Sequence record: OM272052.1
Strand: one strand, 5' to 3'
Length of the DNA stretch: 43,466 bases
Source: Escherichia phage fBC-Eco01
The notes beneath the pieces were generated by a model, which saw nothing but the letters and a program-made list of their open reading frames with translations, was not told the origin of the DNA and did no database searches. The translations under genes were made by a program, and so were the position numbers. Shown here piece after piece: positions 3,341 to 37,857 of the stretch. The first letter of the stretch is position 1. Each line of letters begins with the position of its first letter.

Positions 3341-3346
3341 AGAAAA

Positions 3347-3376
3347 AGGCCCCACTACGGGGCCTTAGTTTTATTT
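3347..3376. terminator. bidirectional intrinsic terminator
   Basis: GGCCCC-ACTAC-GGGGCC hairpin flanked by A-run upstream and T-run downstream; lies between convergent portal and antisense gene. Confidence 0.6.
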
Positions 3377-3892
3377 AAATCTTGCAGGCATTAACACCAT
3401 AAAGGCCGTGTTTGAAAATTGTATTTTGCATCCTCTGGTTTGGTCCTGGAAATCGAAACGAGCAATTTCATTTTTGTATGCCTTAGAAATCTTGTACGCG
3501 TCTGCCAAATAGCGCAGAGTGAACCCTATACTATCGACAACACCCGGTGTGATGTGCGCCACGCGTCTCCAGTCAGGAAAGTTTCCTTCTACAACATCTA
3601 CCGGAAGTGTACATATAAGCGCACGATTATCGTCATAGAAAGATACACTGCCGTTGTCGTGGTTTACCTCCGCGTAGTTAAATTTAGAAGGCTCTCTCCC
3701 TTTGATGTCTATGAGAGTCCCTTTCTCAACGTTGGTCTTCACATTGTCGCAGAACAATCTATGACCGTCCGTAGACACTATCAATCCTTCAGGGTCTATG
3801 TAAAAAGCGTTCAAATAGTAGCGAACATCATTTTTAGCCCTGCATATTTTCGCCCCTACATACGCAGGGAAAGTAATTACTGTAGTAACCAT
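3371..3892 (-). CDS. hypothetical protein (antisense accessory gene, moron)
   Basis: 173 aa ORF on opposite strand to flanking head genes; RBS AGGAGA 6 nt upstream of ATG; own promoter copy and terminator; no family recognised. Confidence 0.6.
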   Translation of the reverse strand: MVTTVITFPAYVGAKICRAKNDVRYYLNAFYIDPEGLIVSTDGHRLFCDNVKTNVEKGTLIDIKGREPSKFNYAEVNHDNGSVSFYDDNRALICTLPVDVVEGNFPDWRRVAHITPGVVDSIGFTLRYLADAYKISKAYKNEIARFDFQDQTRGCKIQFSNTAFMVLMPARFK

Positions 3893-3919
3893 TTTGCGTC
3901 TCCTGTTTAAGTTAACTGA

Positions 3920-3948
3920 ATAGTACCCTATTATATTGGTGTCTGCAA
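3920..3948 (-). promoter_or_regulatory. conserved promoter element copy A (TTGCAG-N17-TACTAT, minus-directed)
   Basis: minus-strand reading TTGCAGACACCAATATAATAGGGTACTATTCAG; matches copies at 6064, 15132, 37795. Confidence 0.45.
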
Positions 3949-3992
3949 ATATTATTTTTATACGTTACACTGGCGGTACTATAGGAGGGCAT

Positions 3993-5036
3993 ATGAGCTT
4001 ACTTACATCTCTAATCAGTCACCAGATATGGCTGCAACGCGCCGCATCCGGTGAAGTGAAAGACCTTACGCCGTTTCTTCAGGAGATGCGGGACGAAATC
4101 AAACGGCAGGTGCTGTTATTCGGCGATGACGGGCGAAGCACCGCGCGACTGAATAAATTGTTACGTGACCTCGAAGAAGCACTAATGGGACTTACAGGCG
4201 ACTGGCAAACAAAGCTGACAGAAGACCTTAAGGAACTGGCGGCGTATGAGGCTGAGTGGAACGTAAAAACGCTGACCACCAACGTAAACGCGGAATTTGT
4301 TACACCTACCGCTGAGCAGGTATGGGCCGCCGCCGAGTTTCAACCGCTCTCATTAAGCGACAAGCCGGTTGATTTCACTAAGCTGATGTCGGGATGGGGT
4401 GAAACCGAAGTAGCACGTCTCGTAACCGGCGTTAAGATGGGCTTTGTGCAAGGTCAGACAACACGGCAGATTGTTAAGAATGTTGTTGGCGCTGGTGGGC
4501 TGGCGGACATATCCGAGCGTAACGCAGCTACGGTAATCCGCACCGCGCTGTCTCACGTATCCAACGAAGCCCGCAACGAGACGTACCGACAGAACGACGA
4601 CATCATCGAGAAGTACGAGTGGGTGTCAACGCTAGACAGCCGTACCAGTACGATTTGTAGGGCCAGAGACGGAATGACGTGGGAAATCGGTAAGGGGCCG
4701 ATGCCCCCGGCCCATTTTGGGTGCCGAAGTACCACGGCACCTGTAATCAGTTCAGAGTTCGACTTCCTCGATAAAGGTGCAAAACGTGCGGCTAAGGGCG
4801 CGGACGGAGGTACTCAGGTAAGCGCAGACACCACTTACTACGAGTTCCTGAAACAACAACCGGCGTGGTTCGTGGACGAAGCACTCGGGCCGACCCGCGG
4901 TAAGATTTTCCGCAACAGCGGTATATCGCCGGAAGAGTTTCGCGTAATATCTGTAGATGGTTTCGGGCGTCCGCTTACTATTAAAGAGATGGCGGAACTC
5001 GATAAACGTGTTGCTGATTATCTGAAAGGGGAATAA
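3993..5036 (+). CDS. head morphogenesis protein (phage Mu F / SPP1 gp7-like minor capsid protein)
   Basis: RBS AGGAGGG before ATG 3993; C-terminal motif TICRARDG...HFGCRS typical of the Mu F family. Confidence 0.8.
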   Translation: MSLLTSLISHQIWLQRAASGEVKDLTPFLQEMRDEIKRQVLLFGDDGRSTARLNKLLRDLEEALMGLTGDWQTKLTEDLKELAAYEAEWNVKTLTTNVNAEFVTPTAEQVWAAAEFQPLSLSDKPVDFTKLMSGWGETEVARLVTGVKMGFVQGQTTRQIVKNVVGAGGLADISERNAATVIRTALSHVSNEARNETYRQNDDIIEKYEWVSTLDSRTSTICRARDGMTWEIGKGPMPPAHFGCRSTTAPVISSEFDFLDKGAKRAAKGADGGTQVSADTTYYEFLKQQPAWFVDEALGPTRGKIFRNSGISPEEFRVISVDGFGRPLTIKEMAELDKRVADYLKGE

Positions 5037-5497: not shown

Positions 5498-5501
5498 TAA
5501 A

Positions 5502-5528
5502 AGGCCCCGTTAAGGGGCTTTATTTTTA
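5502..5528 (+). terminator. intrinsic terminator
   Basis: GGCCCC-GTTAA-GGGGC hairpin followed by TTTATTTTTAT. Confidence 0.5.
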
Positions 5529-5593
5529 TATGAACATCGCGGTGATAACCGCAGCCGATACCCACAAAACAACATAAAACATCACACTATTTG

Positions 5594-5938
5594 TCATTTG
5601 CATTTCTCGTCGTATGTTTGTTGTAACTGCGACAGACGATTACCGGCTGTCATCTCGTCCATAGAAGGCCCAGCGCCTGTGTCCATAAAGAACAGCGGAA
5701 CAAACAGGAATGCGCCTGTAACACCGAGTACAACGTTAGTACCTATTTGCTTATTAACACGGTGCGTAGCGTTGGCTTGAGCTTGTTTTGTCGTGGCGAT
5801 TCTCGATAGTAACTGATTACATGTTGCCGTTGTATCCCCTGCCTGATAAACCTGTAAAGCTGGGTCTGGCAACGACCTTACGCAACCACTCAAACAAACG
5901 GCTACAACACCTGCTACTGCTAATTTAATATATTTCAT
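5594..5938 (-). CDS. putative lipoprotein (accessory)
   Basis: 114 aa; N-terminal signal with lipobox LSGC (MKYIKLAVAGVVAVCLSGC); hydrophobic segment near C-terminus; antisense to head genes. Confidence 0.6.
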   Translation of the reverse strand: MKYIKLAVAGVVAVCLSGCVRSLPDPALQVYQAGDTTATCNQLLSRIATTKQAQANATHRVNKQIGTNVVLGVTGAFLFVPLFFMDTGAGPSMDEMTAGNRLSQLQQTYDEKCK

Positions 5939-6036
5939 AGTTCGCCATTACCCGTGTCAATGTCACCAATACCACTACAAGCCCAAAGAAACATCACCGC
6001 ATCAACTGCAATTACTACTGAAATAACGACTAACAT
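5935..6036 (-). CDS. small hydrophobic peptide (33 aa), translationally coupled to lipoprotein
   Basis: ATG preceded by strong RBS GAGGAGG at 5 nt; stop TGA overlaps lipoprotein ATG (ATGA); sequence MLVVISVVIAVDAVMFLWACSG... Confidence 0.4.
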   Translation of the reverse strand: MLVVISVVIAVDAVMFLWACSGIGDIDTGNGEL

Positions 6037-6063
6037 GACGGCCTCCTCGGTTCGATAGAATGA

Positions 6064-6092
6064 ATAGTACCCTATTATATTGGGGTGCGCAA
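6064..6092 (-). promoter_or_regulatory. conserved promoter element copy B (TTGCGC-N17-TACTAT, minus-directed)
   Basis: minus-strand reading TTGCGCACCCCAATATAATAGGGTACTATTCA about 27 nt upstream of the small peptide ATG. Confidence 0.5.
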
Positions 6093-6134
6093 ACTATTTG
6101 TTTATGTATTCCAGTTATTCCACTCAATTGTAAA

Positions 6135-6163
6135 TGTTGGAATAAACTATTCGAATAGTTGAC
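6135..6163 (+). repeat. TGTTGGAATAA-N-TATTC-TTGAC motif copy 1 (candidate late promoter/activator site)
   Basis: TGTTGGAATAAACTATTCGAATAGTTGAC; a second copy at 6917-6940 precedes the scaffold gene. Confidence 0.3.
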
Positions 6164-6187
6164 TTTTCACCAAAAATGTGCTAAGCT
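6159..6187 (+). promoter_or_regulatory. candidate sigma70-type promoter (TTGACT-N17-TAAGCT)
   Basis: -35 TTGACT, 17-nt spacer, weak -10 TAAGCT; upstream of terminator-bounded leader and spanin genes. Confidence 0.3.
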
Positions 6188-6193
6188 CCACCT

Positions 6194-6394
6194 GAGCTTG
6201 TGAAGTATGAACAAGCGACCGCGGCGTGGCAGGTAACGGAGCCGGACGTTAAGTCCGAGTGTAGTTACGCTGACGCGTTCGGAAGGGCCATACTCTATTG
6301 CTTGTGTAAAAAGTAACTGGTTTACTGAGATTACGCCGTTTCTATGTTTAAATGATAAGGACTAGCGCCCCGCTTTAAGGCGGGGCTTTACTTA
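6194..6394 (+). ncRNA. candidate ~200-nt non-coding leader/sRNA ending in terminator
   Basis: no ORF longer than about 10 codons between the candidate promoter and the GCCCCGC-TTTAAG-GCGGGGC hairpin; followed by spanin RBS. Confidence 0.25.
6367..6394 (+). terminator. intrinsic terminator / attenuator upstream of spanins
   Basis: 7-bp GC-rich stem GCCCCGC/GCGGGGC followed by TTTACTTA. Confidence 0.5.
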
Positions 6395-11951: not shown

Positions 11952-13118
11952 ATGGCTACAACTCCTTTTAAGGGCGCGAATACCGCGCAATTCTATGTGG
12001 CGGAAGTGACCCCTGGCGTAACACCGACTAACCCGGTCTGGTCGCCGTTGCGTAACACTGGCGGTGTTCCCGCGGTAACCCGCGATGCGCTGACTTCCAA
12101 CGAACTCGACGGCAGCAGAGAAACCACATCCATCCGCACCGGTAACAAACAGGTTAGCGGGGAGTACGCCATCGAACTTAGCTCACGTAGCCAGGATGAT
12201 TTCCTTGCGGGTGCTATGACTTCTACGTGGCAGGACGGGGTAGAGATTACGGGTGCTGAAATTACGGTCGCTCCAGCAGGTAAAACATTCACCCGCGCTG
12301 CCGGTAGCTTCATTACTGACGGTGTAGAGGTTGGCGACCTGATTGCATTCACCGACTTAACCGGCGACAACGCAAAACCGTTTATCGTGACCGCGGTCGA
12401 GGCGCTCGTAGTAACAGGCGCAGGCATTCAGCACACGCTGACAGCAGAGACAAAAACCAGTAAGGCTAAGACCGGGGATAAACTGGAAACCGGTAACGCA
12501 TGTAAGACGTTCTCTATCCTGACATGGTTCAAAGGACAGTGCGGGAACCCTGACGCGTACATGTTGACCAAAGGCGTGGAAATCTCCGGTTTTACTATCG
12601 AGCAGGCCGTGAACGCGATGGTGACAGGCAGCTTCCCGTTCATCGGTCTGAGTCAGGAAATTCTTACCGCGCCGCCAGCAGGTTCCGACTTCTCCCAGGT
12701 TACGTTCACCGATGAGCCGTTCTCGTCTGTAGATGTGTCTGTGTTCGACGGCTCTACTCCGTTGCGTTGCGATACTCTTACCATCACCAACGACAACGGC
12801 GCATCCGCTCAGTTTGAACTAGGGAACAGTAGCGTTGCGTTCGTGGAACGTGGTCGCGCAGCTAACACCTTCTCCATCTCTGGGAAGCTGTACGACATGG
12901 CGATGATTCAGAAGTTTATCAACGAGCAGCAGGTAGAGATTAACTCTATTCTGGCGGGGGTGAACGGGGCTATGTCTTTCAGTTTGAAACGCGCAGAACT
13001 TACGGCTGTTACGCCAGAAATATCTGGCCCGGAATCAATTACGCAAAGCATAGAAGGACAGTCCACAGGCAATCAATATCAATCTTCTATTGTTATCCAG
13101 CGTATCACCTACGCATAA
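11952..13118 (+). CDS. major tail protein (putative)
   Basis: ATG 11952 with RBS AAGAGG at 8 nt; 389 aa; last gene before terminator and tail chaperone/tape measure genes. Confidence 0.55.
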   Translation: MATTPFKGANTAQFYVAEVTPGVTPTNPVWSPLRNTGGVPAVTRDALTSNELDGSRETTSIRTGNKQVSGEYAIELSSRSQDDFLAGAMTSTWQDGVEITGAEITVAPAGKTFTRAAGSFITDGVEVGDLIAFTDLTGDNAKPFIVTAVEALVVTGAGIQHTLTAETKTSKAKTGDKLETGNACKTFSILTWFKGQCGNPDAYMLTKGVEISGFTIEQAVNAMVTGSFPFIGLSQEILTAPPAGSDFSQVTFTDEPFSSVDVSVFDGSTPLRCDTLTITNDNGASAQFELGNSSVAFVERGRAANTFSISGKLYDMAMIQKFINEQQVEINSILAGVNGAMSFSLKRAELTAVTPEISGPESITQSIEGQSTGNQYQSSIVIQRITYA

Positions 13119-13122
13119 AACT

Positions 13123-13147
13123 AAGGCCCCGAAAGGGGCCTTTTTCT
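13123..13147. terminator. bidirectional intrinsic terminator
   Basis: AGGCCCC-GAAA-GGGGCCT hairpin with A-run upstream and T-run downstream; ends both the + tail transcript and the - accessory operon. Confidence 0.6.
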
Positions 13148-13320
13148 TATTCCTTCAATTGCATAGGGTAGAAGTTAACGAGTTCTCCTTTATCCCGAAG
13201 CCGTGAATATTCATCTAACGCATCTTCCCGGCTACTTACAGCATAGATATCATTCCACTCGTCCCATTCTTCGTCATATACACGGATTACGTATATTGTT
13301 TTCATTACATTCTCACTCAT
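13147..13320 (-). CDS. hypothetical protein (accessory operon gene 5)
   Basis: internal ATG 13320 or 13305 preferred over track start 13362 to avoid a 50-nt overlap; acidic, W-rich small protein. Confidence 0.4.
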   Translation of the reverse strand: MSENVMKTIYVIRVYDEEWDEWNDIYAVSSREDALDEYSRLRDKGELVNFYPMQLKE

Positions 13321-13543
13321 CAATGTTGCTTCGATACTCCCGTAACTTCTCCAGACTTTCAATTGCTTCCGCTAAGTCGGTTCCGGTGTCCTTGTGCCCG
13401 CGAAGGCCCATACACAACAGCTTCTTCAATGCGTGCTGTAGCGCCGGGTCCCGGATATCGAAGGCGCGGAGCACATCATAAACATCTACTGTCATAGTGC
13501 TGCCGTGGGTATTTGTCATTGTGCGGTTGTATTTATTTGTCAC
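13313..13543 (-). CDS. hypothetical protein (accessory operon gene 4)
   Basis: 76 aa; GTG start with weak RBS; motif VDVYDVLRAF...ALKKLL; family not identified. Confidence 0.45.
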   Translation of the reverse strand: MTNKYNRTMTNTHGSTMTVDVYDVLRAFDIRDPALQHALKKLLCMGLRGHKDTGTDLAEAIESLEKLREYRSNIDE

Positions 13544-13733
13544 TGTTAACTCTCTTAAATCGGGCTATGCCTGACTCGTTAATGCTGCCTATTTCAAAGA
13601 AGCTGCGATATTTAGGCGAATACATTCTTACGTCGCCGTTCTCTAGGGCGACCCCTTCATATACAGCGCCTACTTCGAATCCATTTTTCTCCGCGTACGG
13701 ACTCACATCGGTGCATTCATACATATCTTTCAT
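13533..13733 (-). CDS. hypothetical protein (accessory operon gene 3)
   Basis: 66 aa; ATG overlaps upstream stop (translational coupling); RBS GGAG. Confidence 0.5.
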   Translation of the reverse strand: MKDMYECTDVSPYAEKNGFEVGAVYEGVALENGDVRMYSPKYRSFFEIGSINESGIARFKRVNSDK

Positions 13734-14860
13734 CCCAGCATCTCCGGTGAAATAGTTAAACGTGCGACCTCGCCATATTCGGCACTATAGGTAATTACAT
13801 TTGCGCTACGGCCTGACATCCATCCACCGCGCGAGGCGTAGGCGTCTTTAGCCGCCAGGGTGCGGTGTTGCTCAACAATCATGTTACGGCTTTCTACAAT
13901 CTTCTGGTGGTGCAGATGGCCTACGTGGGCGTAGCTGTAAACACTCTCGCCGAACGCTTTACGGAACTTGGCAATCATTACCGGTTCGATAGCGTCGAAT
14001 CGCGCCTTATGCCCGTGGTGAAAGAACAGCGTAGTTTTGCCGTGTTGGACCATCTTGTAAACATCCGGCGACGTATCGACGAACACACGCGGCTCATTGT
14101 CGTACAGCGTACTAAACATCTCAGCTAACCAAATCATTCCGCTTTCGTCGTGGTTCCCTTGCACGATAAGCAAGCGAACAGATTTATGCTTAACCAGCGC
14201 CATGTCAACAACACGTCGTACCATACGAATCATGTAGCGCACCAGTTTCTGATAGCGAGTATCGGCGTCCAATACATGACCACTCGCTGGCGTAACCGCA
14301 TCCAGACTATCGAAGTGCGCGAAGTCACCCAGCAGGTTAATAACCCCAGTTCCTGCATCTGGTGCTTTCTGAAACGCCGCATCGAACCATCGGGAGAACA
14401 GGTCTTCCGCAATCTTCATATCCCAGTCGTCGCCGCTCTCGTCAGCCCAGGCCAGCATACCAAGATGGAAATCAGATACCGTGTACAGATTGAGTAGTTT
14501 ATCGTCGCGTTTGGCTCGAGTCGCTTTAACCGGCGCAACTGGCGTAATCTCCGACTTCATTCCTTCGATCACGGCTTTCATTAACTCGACCTGACGTTCG
14601 GCGTCGGTGTCTGTCTTAACCCATTGCAACTTAGTGTTGCCGAACTCGTCCACCAGTGACGACGTTCCTTTAATTTTGTAGCCGTCCGGGACAAGATGGC
14701 TAACGTCACGACCGTGACCTACGCCTTTCTTCGCCAGCTTCGCTTTACGGATACGAATAACTCGGTCTGAGATGCCGTATTTACGGGATATGTCGATAAT
14801 CTTTGTTCCGGCGTTCAATTCTTCCTGTAACTGTTCGTCGGTTATTTTCTTCCGGGCCAT
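13730..14860 (-). CDS. HTH domain - calcineurin-like metallophosphoesterase fusion protein
   Basis: 376 aa; N-terminal helix-turn-helix-like segment (IIDISRKYGISDRVIRIRKAK); phosphoesterase motifs in order DFH, GDFAHFD, GNHDE, GH, GHLHH; RBS GAGGAAG. Confidence 0.75.
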   Translation of the reverse strand: MARKKITDEQLQEELNAGTKIIDISRKYGISDRVIRIRKAKLAKKGVGHGRDVSHLVPDGYKIKGTSSLVDEFGNTKLQWVKTDTDAERQVELMKAVIEGMKSEITPVAPVKATRAKRDDKLLNLYTVSDFHLGMLAWADESGDDWDMKIAEDLFSRWFDAAFQKAPDAGTGVINLLGDFAHFDSLDAVTPASGHVLDADTRYQKLVRYMIRMVRRVVDMALVKHKSVRLLIVQGNHDESGMIWLAEMFSTLYDNEPRVFVDTSPDVYKMVQHGKTTLFFHHGHKARFDAIEPVMIAKFRKAFGESVYSYAHVGHLHHQKIVESRNMIVEQHRTLAAKDAYASRGGWMSGRSANVITYSAEYGEVARLTISPEMLG

Positions 14861-14898
14861 GCTTACTTCCTCGTGTTTAGGATTTGTCCTATACTAGC

Positions 14899-15090
14899 TC
14901 ACTTCTCTTTGACATTCGAGTTGCAAGCCCAGATTAAAATAAATACCCACGGCAGCAGAACCCAGCCGAGAAACAGATTAGCCATGAATATCGCCAGTTT
15001 CGCTTTATGTCCGCGCATATGGGCCACTAAAAACGGGATAAAATAAACTAAAACGATAATGATTAAGAAGAACATAGTAATACCTGTCAT
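14899..15090 (-). CDS. superinfection immunity-like small membrane protein (Imm-like)
   Basis: 63 aa from ATG 15090 with RBS AGGAG; two hydrophobic helices with RGHKAK...NLFLGW...PW motif as I recall it for the Imm-like family. Confidence 0.5.
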   Translation of the reverse strand: MTGITMFFLIIIVLVYFIPFLVAHMRGHKAKLAIFMANLFLGWVLLPWVFILIWACNSNVKEK

Positions 15091-15131
15091 GGTGTAGCTC
15101 CTGTTTGAGTTAACATTGTTGGTGTAAGTGA

Positions 15132-15160
15132 ATAGTATCCTATTATGTTGGGGTGCGCAA
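15132..15160 (-). promoter_or_regulatory. conserved promoter element copy C (TTGCGC-N17-TACTAT, minus-directed)
   Basis: minus-strand reading TTGCGCACCCCAACATAATAGGATACTATTCAC, 28 nt identical to copy D. Confidence 0.5.
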
Positions 15161-15268
15161 GTAATGTGATAGAATAATTTTGCGCCTAGTGTCGCACACG
15201 AAAAGCGGGTGGTTCCCGTCTGGCGCATTTACCATTAACCTGTAACCTCTTAACCAAAGGATTAAAGA

Positions 15269-15685
15269 ATGAAACTTTCTGATTTTTATTACGAAGCTGA
15301 GGCAGAAAAAGGCGCCCGTATGCCGATACCACTGAAAGACGGCACCGATTCAGGGGAGTGGCTGAACGTTGTTTCACCGGAGGCAGACGTTGCTGTTAAA
15401 GCTATGAGGGCGTTTACACTTGCGTACCGCGCGGCATTAGGTAAATTGAAACCGCTTCGCGATAAATGCGAGGAACTGAAAGATTTCTCGGAATACAACA
15501 TCAAGATGGAAGACGCCGCAACGGACCTTAACCGCCAGTTAGCGCTTGAACTGGTTAACGGTTGGAGTCTCGACGATGAATTTAATAAAGAGAACCTGAA
15601 TACTCTTTTCTCACAATATAAACGACTCGCTGAACACGTTGTTGTTTTCCACAATGAACAGCTTCACCAATTGCAGGAAAAGTAG
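15269..15685 (+). CDS. tail assembly chaperone (gpG-like)
   Basis: 138 aa acidic protein immediately upstream of tape measure; RBS AAAGGA; ends at slippery-like GGAAAAG. Confidence 0.6.
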   Translation: MKLSDFYYEAEAEKGARMPIPLKDGTDSGEWLNVVSPEADVAVKAMRAFTLAYRAALGKLKPLRDKCEELKDFSEYNIKMEDAATDLNRQLALELVNGWSLDDEFNKENLNTLFSQYKRLAEHVVVFHNEQLHQLQEK

Positions 15686-34270: not shown

Positions 34271-34486
34271 ATGCAACCATCTGAACTAGGCATCCGTGTA
34301 GAACAACGCCGCAAAGAACTCGGCATCTCCCAGCGCCGTCTGGCTGTCCTGACTGGCGTTTCCCAGGGCGCGATTAACCAACTGGCACTTGGGGTAACTC
34401 AGGACGTCCGCCCGGTGACGCTGTTTAAACTGGCGGAAGTGCTGGAAGTAGACGCCAAATGGCTGGCGTTTGGTGAAGGGGCTTAA
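34271..34486 (+). CDS. XRE-family helix-turn-helix transcriptional regulator (Cro/CI-like)
   Basis: 71 aa; HTH signature ISQRRLAVLTGVSQGAINQLA; RBS AAGGAG; own terminator. Confidence 0.7.
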   Translation: MQPSELGIRVEQRRKELGISQRRLAVLTGVSQGAINQLALGVTQDVRPVTLFKLAEVLEVDAKWLAFGEGA

Positions 34487-37729: not shown

Positions 37730-37794
37730 ACCAAGTAATAAGAATAAAGGCACAACCTTCCCTAAAGAATCACAACGGCAACGTAACTAATCTC

Positions 37795-37823
37795 TTGCAC
37801 ACCCCAACATAATAGGATACTAT
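37795..37823 (+). promoter_or_regulatory. conserved promoter element copy D (TTGCAC-N17-TACTAT, plus-directed)
   Basis: TTGCACACCCCAACATAATAGGATACTATTCAC upstream of the rightward small-gene cluster. Confidence 0.5.
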
Positions 37824-37857
37824 TCACGTATCGGGACGAGACAGAGGAGTGAGGGTT

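Follow-up and report, generated by a model that had tools for sequence, protein, structure and literature searches.

An antisense cargo bay with a helix-turn-helix metallophosphoesterase between the tail tube and chaperone genes of Escherichia phage fBC-Eco01

We analysed a stretch of 43,466 nucleotides (nt) of DNA from Escherichia phage fBC-Eco01 (OM272052.1), referred to below as the window, and focused on an operon of five minus-strand open reading frames (ORFs) located between the tail tube gene and the tail assembly chaperone gene. The 43.5-kb window represents a near-complete Kagunavirus genome (subfamily Guernseyvirinae; kin of the Salmonella phages Jersey and SETP3), and the five ORFs are present at 13147–15090, where a preliminary description made from the letters of the sequence had placed them. 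The results reveal that the operon is real, conserved and annotated before in relatives, and that it is not a new multigene system. It is a cargo bay with a metallophosphoesterase (MPE) as its anchor, an envelope protein in its first slot and interchangeable distal cargo, represented here by ORF66, ORF76 and ORF57. Taken as a whole, the findings are likely explained by a long-standing antisense cargo bay of the Guernseyvirinae, which is bounded by a promoter and a terminator, is anchored by an MPE with an N-terminal helix-turn-helix (HTH) and carries genes with predicted functions. The operon and its boundaries comprise the following features:

13123–13142, both strands: bidirectional intrinsic terminator, common to the tail tube gene (plus strand) and the antisense operon (minus strand)
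13147–13320, minus strand: ORF57, 57 residues from ATG, or 71 residues from TTG at 13362
13313–13543, minus strand: ORF76, 76 residues, GTG start
13533–13733, minus strand: ORF66, 66 residues
13730–14860, minus strand: HTH-MPE, 376 residues
14899–15090, minus strand: Imm-like protein, 63 residues, first gene of the operon
15125–15161, minus strand: predicted sigma-70 promoter of the operon, four copies in the window versus 0 expected

The genes are as tightly packed as previously noted. A gap of 38 nt separates the Imm-like gene from the MPE gene, and overlaps of 4, 11 and 8 nt follow at the MPE-to-ORF66, ORF66-to-ORF76 and ORF76-to-ORF57 junctions, with the stop codon of ORF57 located 4 nt away from the terminator stem. 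The ATG at 15090, which has AGGAG 7–8 nt ahead of it, is a credible start for the 63-residue Imm-like protein; the 109-residue reading from 15228, as annotated in Escherichia phage Snoke, would cross the promoter and is not credible. Because substitution among homologous loci is biased towards third positions, internal stops number zero and the ratio of nonsynonymous to synonymous change (pN/pS) is low (0.09–0.22 for all five genes; MPE 0.09, ORF66 0.11, ORF76 0.12 and ORF57 0.22), the five ORFs are genuine genes. Purifying selection thus acts on all five across homologues, a point on which the preliminary description had staked its proposal.

A megablast search with positions 12900–15400 matched 457 phage records, of which Snoke was the top one (94.8% identity over the full length). 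The GenBank record of Snoke (MK931441) shows, in order, the tail tube gene, the bidirectional terminator, five minus-strand genes and the tail assembly chaperone gene, the five genes being labelled as three hypothetical proteins, a 'phosphoesterase' and a 'superinfection immunity protein'. The identical five-gene set, in the same order and orientation and at the same tube-chaperone site, is carried by the Kagunavirus phages Snoke, Schulenburg, Sciku and Shashou. The closest known thing to the operon is, therefore, the annotated cassette of Snoke and its relatives, whose functions there are putative, and the earlier remark that the gene combination was not a recognised one is superseded by these GenBank entries.

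Cargo exchange at the tube-chaperone junction and between bays

For comparison, 74 IMG/VR loci were gathered via the MPE protein and combined with GenBank loci, and 47 Guernseyvirinae-type loci were compared, with the slot contents identified by Pfam and PHROG searches:

Anchor: MPE, 47 of 47 loci (by construction)
Promoter-proximal slot: Imm-like protein in several alleles, 32 of 47 loci
Promoter-proximal slot: 108-residue protein with a signal-like N-terminus (phrog_14165), 11 of 47 loci
Promoter-proximal slot: another exported protein, 2 of 47 loci
Distal slot: ORF76, 26–28 of 47 loci
Distal slot: PNKP-type HAD phosphatase (PF25109, E = 8.5e-21) plus a dNMP-kinase-like protein, 16 of 47 loci
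Distal slot: ORF57, 7 of 47 loci
Distal slot: ORF66, 6 of 47 loci
Distal slot: HNH endonuclease, 6 of 47 loci
Distal slot: Rha/KilAC protein, 6 of 47 loci
Distal slot: small membrane protein, 3 of 47 loci

Many differing gene combinations occupy the same tube-chaperone site, and the breakpoints in pairwise comparisons of the loci coincide with gene boundaries, the terminator and the promoter. Therefore, the five genes do not form a single co-inherited system. The numbers of records in the phage collection that hold each gene also differ (MPE 2053, ORF76 773, Imm-like 380, ORF66 25 and ORF57 22). Within Jerseyvirus, the MPE alleles differ widely, with 55% identity to the window MPE in Salmonella phage S528 and 90% in SETP13, and the adjacent ORF76 has the reverse pattern (92% in S528 and 79% in SETP13); these opposite patterns point to allelic replacement within the bay.

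The preliminary description had raised the question of whether the cassette is present or absent at this junction among related phages. As a DNA query against the phage collection, we used the final 400 nt of the tube gene fused to the initial 400 nt of the chaperone gene. The query matched 492 records, and only one, Hafnia phage TS33, had both halves within ∼800 bp; a tail tube gene at 60% identity or more is found in ∼494 records. TS33 (OR844384, 39.9 kb, Guernseyvirinae) retains an antisense unit between its tube and chaperone genes, consisting of the same terminator, a TTGCAT-N17-TACTAT promoter, a 119-residue protein with a signal-peptide-like N-terminus and a 51-residue ORF. An antisense unit is thus found in essentially all relatives, and the single close junction, together with the unit retained in TS33, indicates that the antisense unit is ancestral to the subfamily. 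Some points weigh against an ancient bay with the MPE as its anchor: the presence of the MPE in 47 of 47 loci is true by construction because the loci were collected through it, 170 of the 492 junction-test records matched one half of the query only, and no MPE was found in the 31.4 kb of TS33 examined, so that the MPE is near-universal but not strictly core.

In lambdoid phages, a moron, following the definition of Hendrix and Juhala, is an extra transcription unit with its own promoter and terminator located between conserved late genes. The operon resembles the lambdoid morons in its own promoter and terminator (as read from the sequence), its site among late genes, its nonstructural content and its patchy, AT-rich distal cargo. 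It differs from them in the key respect, however, because it is not present or absent as a unit among relatives, and because its anchor gene is near-universal and of average composition; presence or absence is seen solely for single cargo genes such as ORF66 and ORF57. In addition, the phage is virulent, and so prophage expression, as known for morons, does not apply. Thus, what stands of the proposal that the cassette is a moron is the promoter, the terminator and the small distal genes, which act as moron-type cargo; the operon as a whole is no insertion.

The preliminary description further took the operon to be the sole break in a plus-strand structural block. Two further antisense units, at 3371–3892 and 5526–6036, bring the interruptions to three in all, and each lies in a bay of its own:

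3344–3965, minus strand: bay 1, with a terminator, a 173-residue sliding-clamp/processivity-factor-like gene (3371–3892) and the same promoter
5499–6105, minus strand: bay 2, with a terminator, a 25-residue transmembrane ORF, a 114-residue lipoprotein, a 33-residue transmembrane ORF and the same promoter

The bay 1 gene matches phrog_3007 at 3.6e-36 and also phrog_947, and the bay 2 lipoprotein (5594–5938) has the lipobox LSGC and matches phrog_13472 at 5.7e-44. The bay 1 block is 95.8% identical to positions 5730–6349 of Snoke, where it occupies bay 2 (the clamp-like proteins are 97.7% identical), and the terminator hairpin and the promoter element mark the exact limits of the homology. Snoke, in which bay 1 is missing, differs from the window in that its clamp-like cassette occupies bay 2, whereas the window has the clamp in bay 1 and the lipoprotein trio in bay 2; the cargo of bay 2 has no counterpart in Snoke, the homology breaking at the terminator (5541) and at the promoter (6061). 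The position of the clamp-like cassette indicates that cargo moves between bays. Further, in the IMG/VR relatives L044 and L076, whose major capsid protein is 92% identical, the MPE itself is located in bay 2. Overall, the results show that single genes of the cargo are swapped and that cargo passes among the three bays, the breakpoints lying at the terminator and promoter sequences that the bays share. In addition, the capsid morphogenesis gene of Snoke has a large intein (Snoke 4130–4962 versus window 4715–4731), the window copy of the gene (3992–5036) is without it, and the homology resumes directly across the intein site.

A comparable arrangement is known from the PeSL 'mobile regulatory cassettes' of T4-type phages (PMC2839356, PMC4122927), in which repeated conserved promoter and terminator motifs likewise bound variable genes and the breakpoints of replacement and relocation lie at the motifs. 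The PeSL, however, is a composite of a terminator stem-loop followed by an early promoter between co-oriented genes, whereas the terminator and promoter of a bay stand at opposite ends of an antisense unit, in another phage family. Only the empty bay 1 site of Snoke shows a hairpin followed directly by a palindrome-like sequence. In summary, the operon mixes features of morons (its own promoter and terminator and a patchy, AT-rich cargo) with those of hyperplastic regions that have portable regulatory ends.

Predicted functions of the encoded proteins

The nonstructural content listed in the preliminary description (an Imm-like membrane protein, an HTH-phosphoesterase and three unknown small proteins) is backed by Pfam, PHROG and structural-model evidence; NCBIfam returned nothing meaningful for any of the five proteins. 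The MPE matches phrog_704 (E = 1.7e-165). Its family is large, with 3585 hits in a collection of 5.8 billion proteins and 4648 clusters at 50% identity, and is found in Guernseyvirinae, Dhillonvirus (75% identity), T1-like Drexlerviridae (41–47%), Jedunavirus and phages of Vibrio, Campylobacter and roseobacters. All five active-site motifs of MPEs are present (DxH, GD, GNH[DE], H and GHxH); D130, H132, G178, D179, N236, H237, H282, G314 and H317 are invariant in 100 diverse homologues, and H315 is kept in at least 90%. The AlphaFold2 model (predicted local distance difference test score, pLDDT, 93.5) comprises an N-terminal three-helix HTH (residues 8–44), a β-hairpin plus helix (61–103) and the MPE core (119–376).

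A Foldseek search with this model matched many MPE structures with a probability of 1.00 and gave Mre11, PolD DP1 and Rv0805 at ∼1e-8. Across fold and profile searches, Mre11/SbcD, the PolD DP1 exonuclease and the cyclic-nucleotide phosphodiesterase Rv0805 score similarly and modestly. A profile search of solved structures returned weak matches to GerE-type HTHs and to SbcD/Mre11, the latter at E = 0.11 over motifs I–II, and the viral structure libraries yielded uncharacterised homologues only. The matches of a single-sequence search of solved structures, to an unrelated ATPase, were at chance level and were dropped.

The gene neighbourhoods of the MPE in other phages are DNA-metabolic. It follows helicase, VRR-NUC and Dam genes in phage Stevie, stands ahead of the small terminase gene in Dhillonvirus and, in the Jedunavirus Klebsiella phage MEW1 (5113–5607), follows the primase gene and is itself followed directly by a PNKP-type phosphatase gene. 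A PNKP-type HAD phosphatase is likewise found directly behind the MPE in locus L073 (5213–6404), which belongs to an unrelated lineage, and this repeated pairing hints at a connection of the MPE with enzymes that process nucleotides or ends. The ORF that follows in L073 has a GGMKFDGGKP...FGAEKY motif, which may resemble the N-terminal domain of a dATP/dGTP pyrophosphohydrolase. In the window, the DNA-replication accessory gene of bay 1 is under the same type of promoter as the MPE operon.

The catalytic motifs, the fold neighbours and the DNA-metabolic contexts favour, tentatively, a DNA-directed nuclease or phosphodiesterase that would support phage DNA metabolism. Such an enzyme would be metal-dependent and guided to DNA by its N-terminal HTH, and it may serve, for example, in host-DNA breakdown and nucleotide salvage or in the processing of DNA ends, being helpful but not essential. 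This assignment is weakened by the Pfam matches to Metallophos and Metallophos_2, which lie under the curated cut-offs, and by the fold search, which leaves nuclease and cyclic-nucleotide phosphodiesterase undiscriminated.

With Mre11/SbcD, PolD DP1 and T4 gp47, the MPE has in common the calcineurin-like fold and the five-motif active site, Mre11 and PolD DP1 being its top structural neighbours. The identity is, however, 11–16% and the TM-score ∼0.4, and the N-terminal HTH and β-hairpin module is a feature of the MPE family's own, unlike these proteins. In addition, neither the bay nor the annotated neighbourhoods that were examined in relatives contained a gene for a Rad50/SbcC-like partner. 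With a weak profile match, a fold match no better than that to Rv0805 or PolD DP1 and no such partner in these neighbourhoods, the MPE is not assigned to the Mre11/SbcD family of double-strand-break nucleases.

A plausible functional analogue is the MPE Gp48 of mycobacteriophage A10ZJ24, which is expressed early, has phosphodiesterase activity and damages host DNA, and which the phage needs in a defence-rich host but not in another (PMC12287305). The resemblance is at the level of the superfamily only: the motif I aspartate is at residue 10 in Gp48 and at D130 in the window MPE, so that Gp48 is probably without the N-terminal HTH module.

Could the MPE instead be a counter-defence enzyme, either degrading cyclic-nucleotide immune signals as class III phosphodiesterases do or healing nuclease-cut ends together with the PNKP-type HAD phosphatase? 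Consistent with such a role, Rv0805 is among the top fold matches; the HAD_PNKP phosphatase (E = 8.5e-21) stands directly behind the MPE in 16 Kagunavirus loci, in MEW1 and in L073; TS33, with no MPE in the 31.4 kb examined, shows it to be dispensable, as accessory counter-defence genes often are; and the mycobacteriophage enzyme is needed only in the defence-rich host (PMC12287305). However, the N-terminal HTH argues for an enzyme bound to DNA and not for one that acts on a soluble signal, no ligase was found as a partner, several virulent phage families carry the MPE almost universally whatever the host, and Kagunavirus phages are still highly restriction-sensitive and variably Old-sensitive (PMC11990801). 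The latter study, which describes the BASEL collection, does not report the sensitivity of Kagunavirus to cyclic-nucleotide defence of the CBASS/Pycsar type and makes no statement on the cassette. We consequently regard a counter-defence MPE as unlikely.

A broader proposal would make the HTH-MPE a general phage enzyme of counter-defence and host takeover and the bays a dedicated platform for the exchange of exclusion and counter-defence genes, analogous to the PeSL yet independent of it. If this were true, the MPE would destroy host DNA or defence loci, remove immune nucleotide signals or heal nuclease-cut ends; we give this proposal, too, only a small chance and retain the DNA-directed nuclease or phosphodiesterase as the favoured assignment.

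The product of the first gene matches PF14373 Imm_superinfect (E = 8.7e-14; 51.6 bits versus a cut-off of 27.9) and phrog_1039, 'immunity to superinfection' (E = 1.4e-23). Hydrophobic stretches at residues ∼4–23 and ∼31–54, with a basic loop HMRGHKAK between them, were read directly from the sequence and are as expected of a small inner-membrane protein with two putative transmembrane segments. It resembles Imm of phage T4 in belonging to PF14373, in its small size and in having two hydrophobic segments, a relation that rests on the Pfam profile and on a BLASTp note by the depositors of Snoke; no T4 record is among the 25 spread matches listed from a tblastn search of the phage collection with the Imm-like protein (E ≤ 1e-3). 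The slot alternates solely with exported or membrane proteins, and these alternatives, like the Pfam family, fit a role in exclusion at the level of the envelope. The Imm-like protein thus probably excludes superinfecting phage, and it may do so by blocking the entry of their DNA at the inner membrane.

A role of the Imm-like protein in lysis timing or membrane physiology, and not in exclusion, appears quite doubtful. PF14373 members are common in bacteria and have no known role, which leaves room for such a function. In addition, a study of phage K1B4 ties the homologue to lysis and places it in the late class (PMC12645636). The lysis cassette, however, is located elsewhere (in Snoke, holins and endolysin near 41–42 kb, with spanins after bay 2), the Imm-like gene is the first behind a promoter that has a palindrome in common with the replication-operon promoters, and its slot alternates with periplasmic or exported proteins and not with holin-like ones.

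The three small proteins are of two kinds. ORF76, which has the motif KY..VDVYDVL.AF..PA.QHALKKLLC.GLRGHK, is present in 773 phage records, those of Jerseyvirus, T1-like, Acinetobacter and Vibrio phages among them, and matches the C-terminal part of phrog_2452 (E = 8.6e-37). Its AlphaFold2 model (pLDDT 86.7) has a β-hairpin and three helices; no significant fold match was found in the PDB, and a profile search of PDB sequences was empty. The idea of a DUF3310/SaV-like or dGTP_diPhyd_N protein was dropped, no such Pfam hit being obtained even at E ≤ 10, and a linkage of ORF76 to the MPE beyond the Guernseyvirinae was likewise discarded, as in the T1-like phage phiA2-1 the homologue (2492–2722) heads a small-gene operon away from any MPE. 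A 76-residue homologue of ORF76 is called 'phosphodiesterase' in the GenBank records of Shashou and phiA2-1, a label that finds no family or fold support and was probably transferred in error from the adjacent MPE gene. ORF66 (25 phage records, all Kagunavirus, always adjoining the MPE gene) and the small acidic protein ORF57 (22 phage records, all Kagunavirus-type; an HNH endonuclease gene takes its place in two loci, L013 and L034) gave no Pfam, PHROG or PADLOC match and are orphans restricted to Kagunavirus, that is, variable cargo.

The same data bear on the idea, put forward in the preliminary description, of an exclusion or anti-defence cassette. In its strictest form, in which the five genes are a recently acquired moron acting as one superinfection-exclusion or anti-defence system, we consider it very improbable. 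Its own promoter and terminator, its nonstructural content, its slightly low mean GC content and the presence of an Imm-like protein would be in keeping with such an origin. However, the genes are not co-inherited (from 2053 records for the MPE, through 773, 380 and 25, down to 22 for ORF57), many combinations are found at the same site, and essentially all relatives have the antisense unit. Further, the AT-richness previously reported is marginal overall: the GC content of the cassette is 0.482 versus 0.504 for the genome, the 11th percentile of windows of the same size, and although ORF57 (0.39), the Imm-like gene (0.40) and ORF66 (0.44) are indeed AT-rich, the MPE (0.512) and ORF76 (0.502) are at about the genome mean. 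Finally, no PADLOC-DB 2.0 model was matched at E ≤ 0.01 by the five proteins or by the cargo of the other bays. What survives of the exclusion idea is its first gene, a plausible superinfection-exclusion protein.

Regulatory sequences of the operon and the neighbouring RNA motif

Consistent with the preliminary description, the operon has its own copy of a promoter element that is repeated in the window. The −35 hexamer TTGCGC (the complement of 15155–15160) and the −10 hexamer TACTAT (the complement of 15132–15137) are separated by a 17-nt spacer, and the 29-mer at 15131–15159 occurs in three copies at 3 or fewer mismatches in the window, with 0 expected, and in a further, more diverged copy at 3917. 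All copies of the promoter, read on the strand of the downstream gene, have the form TTGCrC-N17-TACTAT-TCA and stand 15–35 nt ahead of a Shine-Dalgarno sequence and start codon. One copy lies outside the bays:

37794–37830, plus strand: copy of the promoter element, with 1 mismatch to the copy at 15131, followed by GAGGAG and a GTG start

This copy is predicted to drive a rightward operon of small genes. All 34 Kagunavirus-type loci retain the bay promoter, with the chaperone gene at a constant distance from it, irrespective of the first gene of the bay, and Jerseyvirus has a variant (TTGCAT-N17-TATTAT) that carries the same palindrome.

This palindrome, AATAGTATCCTATT at 15131–15144, lies inside the operon promoter and overlaps its −10 hexamer. 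Sites matching AATAG-N4-CTATT with at most 1 mismatch number 11 in the window versus 1.1 expected, and each is inside or overlaps a promoter-like site (3919, 6063, 6154, 15131, 27126, 31347, 34183, 34227, 37811, 38977 and 41749). They are found at the three bays (3919, 6063 and 15131); at the leftward replication operons (27126, 31347 and 34183), where strong promoters of the form TTGACA-N17-TATAGT stand ahead of the helicase, polymerase, SSB and primase genes; in the promoter of a Cro-like gene; and at two rightward promoters near 38–39 kb (37811 and 38977), the sites at 6154 and 41749 being weaker, with one mismatch. Two classes of promoter thus carry the palindrome, TTGACA-N17-TATAGT at the replication operons and TTGCrC-N17-TACTAT at the bays and rightward operons. 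Its occurrence in both suggests that one DNA-binding regulator probably controls them all, with the palindrome as its operator and the Cro-like protein (34271–34486) as a candidate, and the simplest reading is that the cassette would be expressed early or in the middle of infection.

That the MPE itself is mainly a regulator, its HTH binding AATAG-N4-CTATT or another promoter site and its phosphoesterase modulating transcription or a host protein by dephosphorylation, is scarcely credible. In its favour, the N-terminal domain resembles GerE/LuxR-type and transposase-type HTHs (at weak E-values of 0.02–0.06), and some protein must bind the palindrome. Against it, T1-like, Dhillonvirus and Vibrio phages commonly carry MPEs of this family, a dedicated gene for a Cro-like repressor stands behind a palindrome-bearing promoter of its own, and the catalytic motifs are those of a nuclease or phosphodiesterase and not of a PPP-type protein phosphatase.

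At its other end, the operon is closed by the hairpin at 13123–13142, which, as the preliminary description had it, is called as a terminator on both strands by a consensus scan. It has an 8-bp GC stem with T-runs on both strands and folding energies of −16.6 and −19.0 kcal/mol (z = −2.95 and −3.61 versus shuffled controls). Whatever the last gene, 46 of 47 related loci retain the GGCCCC-loop-GGGGCC hairpin, and hairpins resembling it are found at 3344 and 5499. The operon lies at a natural break of the late operon, directly behind the terminator of the tail tube gene. Host sigma-70 RNA polymerase is expected to start at TTGCGC-N17-TACTAT, at ∼15125, and transcription would run leftwards over the five packed genes and end at the hairpin.

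Some observations tell against early or middle expression of the operon. The plus strand of the repeated element is also promoter-like (TTAACA-17-TAGTAT and TTGGTG-16-TATTAT at 15110–15146), and its −10 overlaps the leftward −10 on the other strand. The element may, therefore, be bidirectional and possibly restart plus-strand transcription towards the chaperone gene, which may weaken an assignment of the operon to early or late expression. Further, the sole paper with RNA sequencing of a Kagunavirus (PMC12645636), which used a coarse time series, places the Imm homologue in its 'late' class; this homologue is the only cassette gene mentioned there, and the MPE is not discussed. The promoter, the operator and the timing of the operon are thus predictions. 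No late plus-strand promoter behind the bay could be assigned with confidence.

Between the operon promoter and the chaperone start, directly upstream of the chaperone gene, is a 65-nt RNA element that neighbours the antisense operon and is not part of it:

15179–15243, plus strand: int-alpA-like structured RNA (Rfam RF02996)

The match to RF02996 covers the full-length model at 32.5 bits, under the gathering score of 35.8 (E = 2.7e-5). The element, but not its flanks, is conserved among Kagunavirus, Jerseyvirus, TS33 and more distant IMG/VR lineages. Of the cells in 18 diverse sequences, 94.8% are paired in a three-helix structure, in which 4 pairs have compensatory changes; the covariation score is 0.266 versus 0.120 in shuffles, with 0 of 500 shuffles reaching 0.266 and slid controls all far lower. 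The G-U pairs favour the plus strand, and the fold of the leader at 15170–15275 by itself is not significant (z = −0.29), the case for a structured RNA resting on the Rfam match and the covariation. As the transcript of the chaperone and tape-measure genes must restart after the bidirectional terminator, the element is probably located in its leader, and it may be the cis-regulatory leader of the chaperone and tape-measure operon. TS33, which provides a natural comparator without the MPE, also has an int-alpA-like element.

Overall, the value of these results lies in the ubiquitous HTH-MPE family, the three exchangeable bays and the int-alpA-like RNA motif. The HTH-MPE family is very widespread and catalytically intact, its function is only predicted, and its recurring neighbours, a PNKP-type phosphatase and a dNMP kinase, and one natural relative without the MPE make experiments tractable. 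The int-alpA motif at the head of the tail-assembly operon of a virulent phage offers a testable cis-regulatory setting for this poorly understood motif. In their late region, these small therapeutic-candidate phages have three antisense bays that are interchangeable and end in portable regulatory sequences; as natural insertion sites, the bays are useful for phage engineering, and they also help to account for differences in host range and exclusion among near-identical phages.

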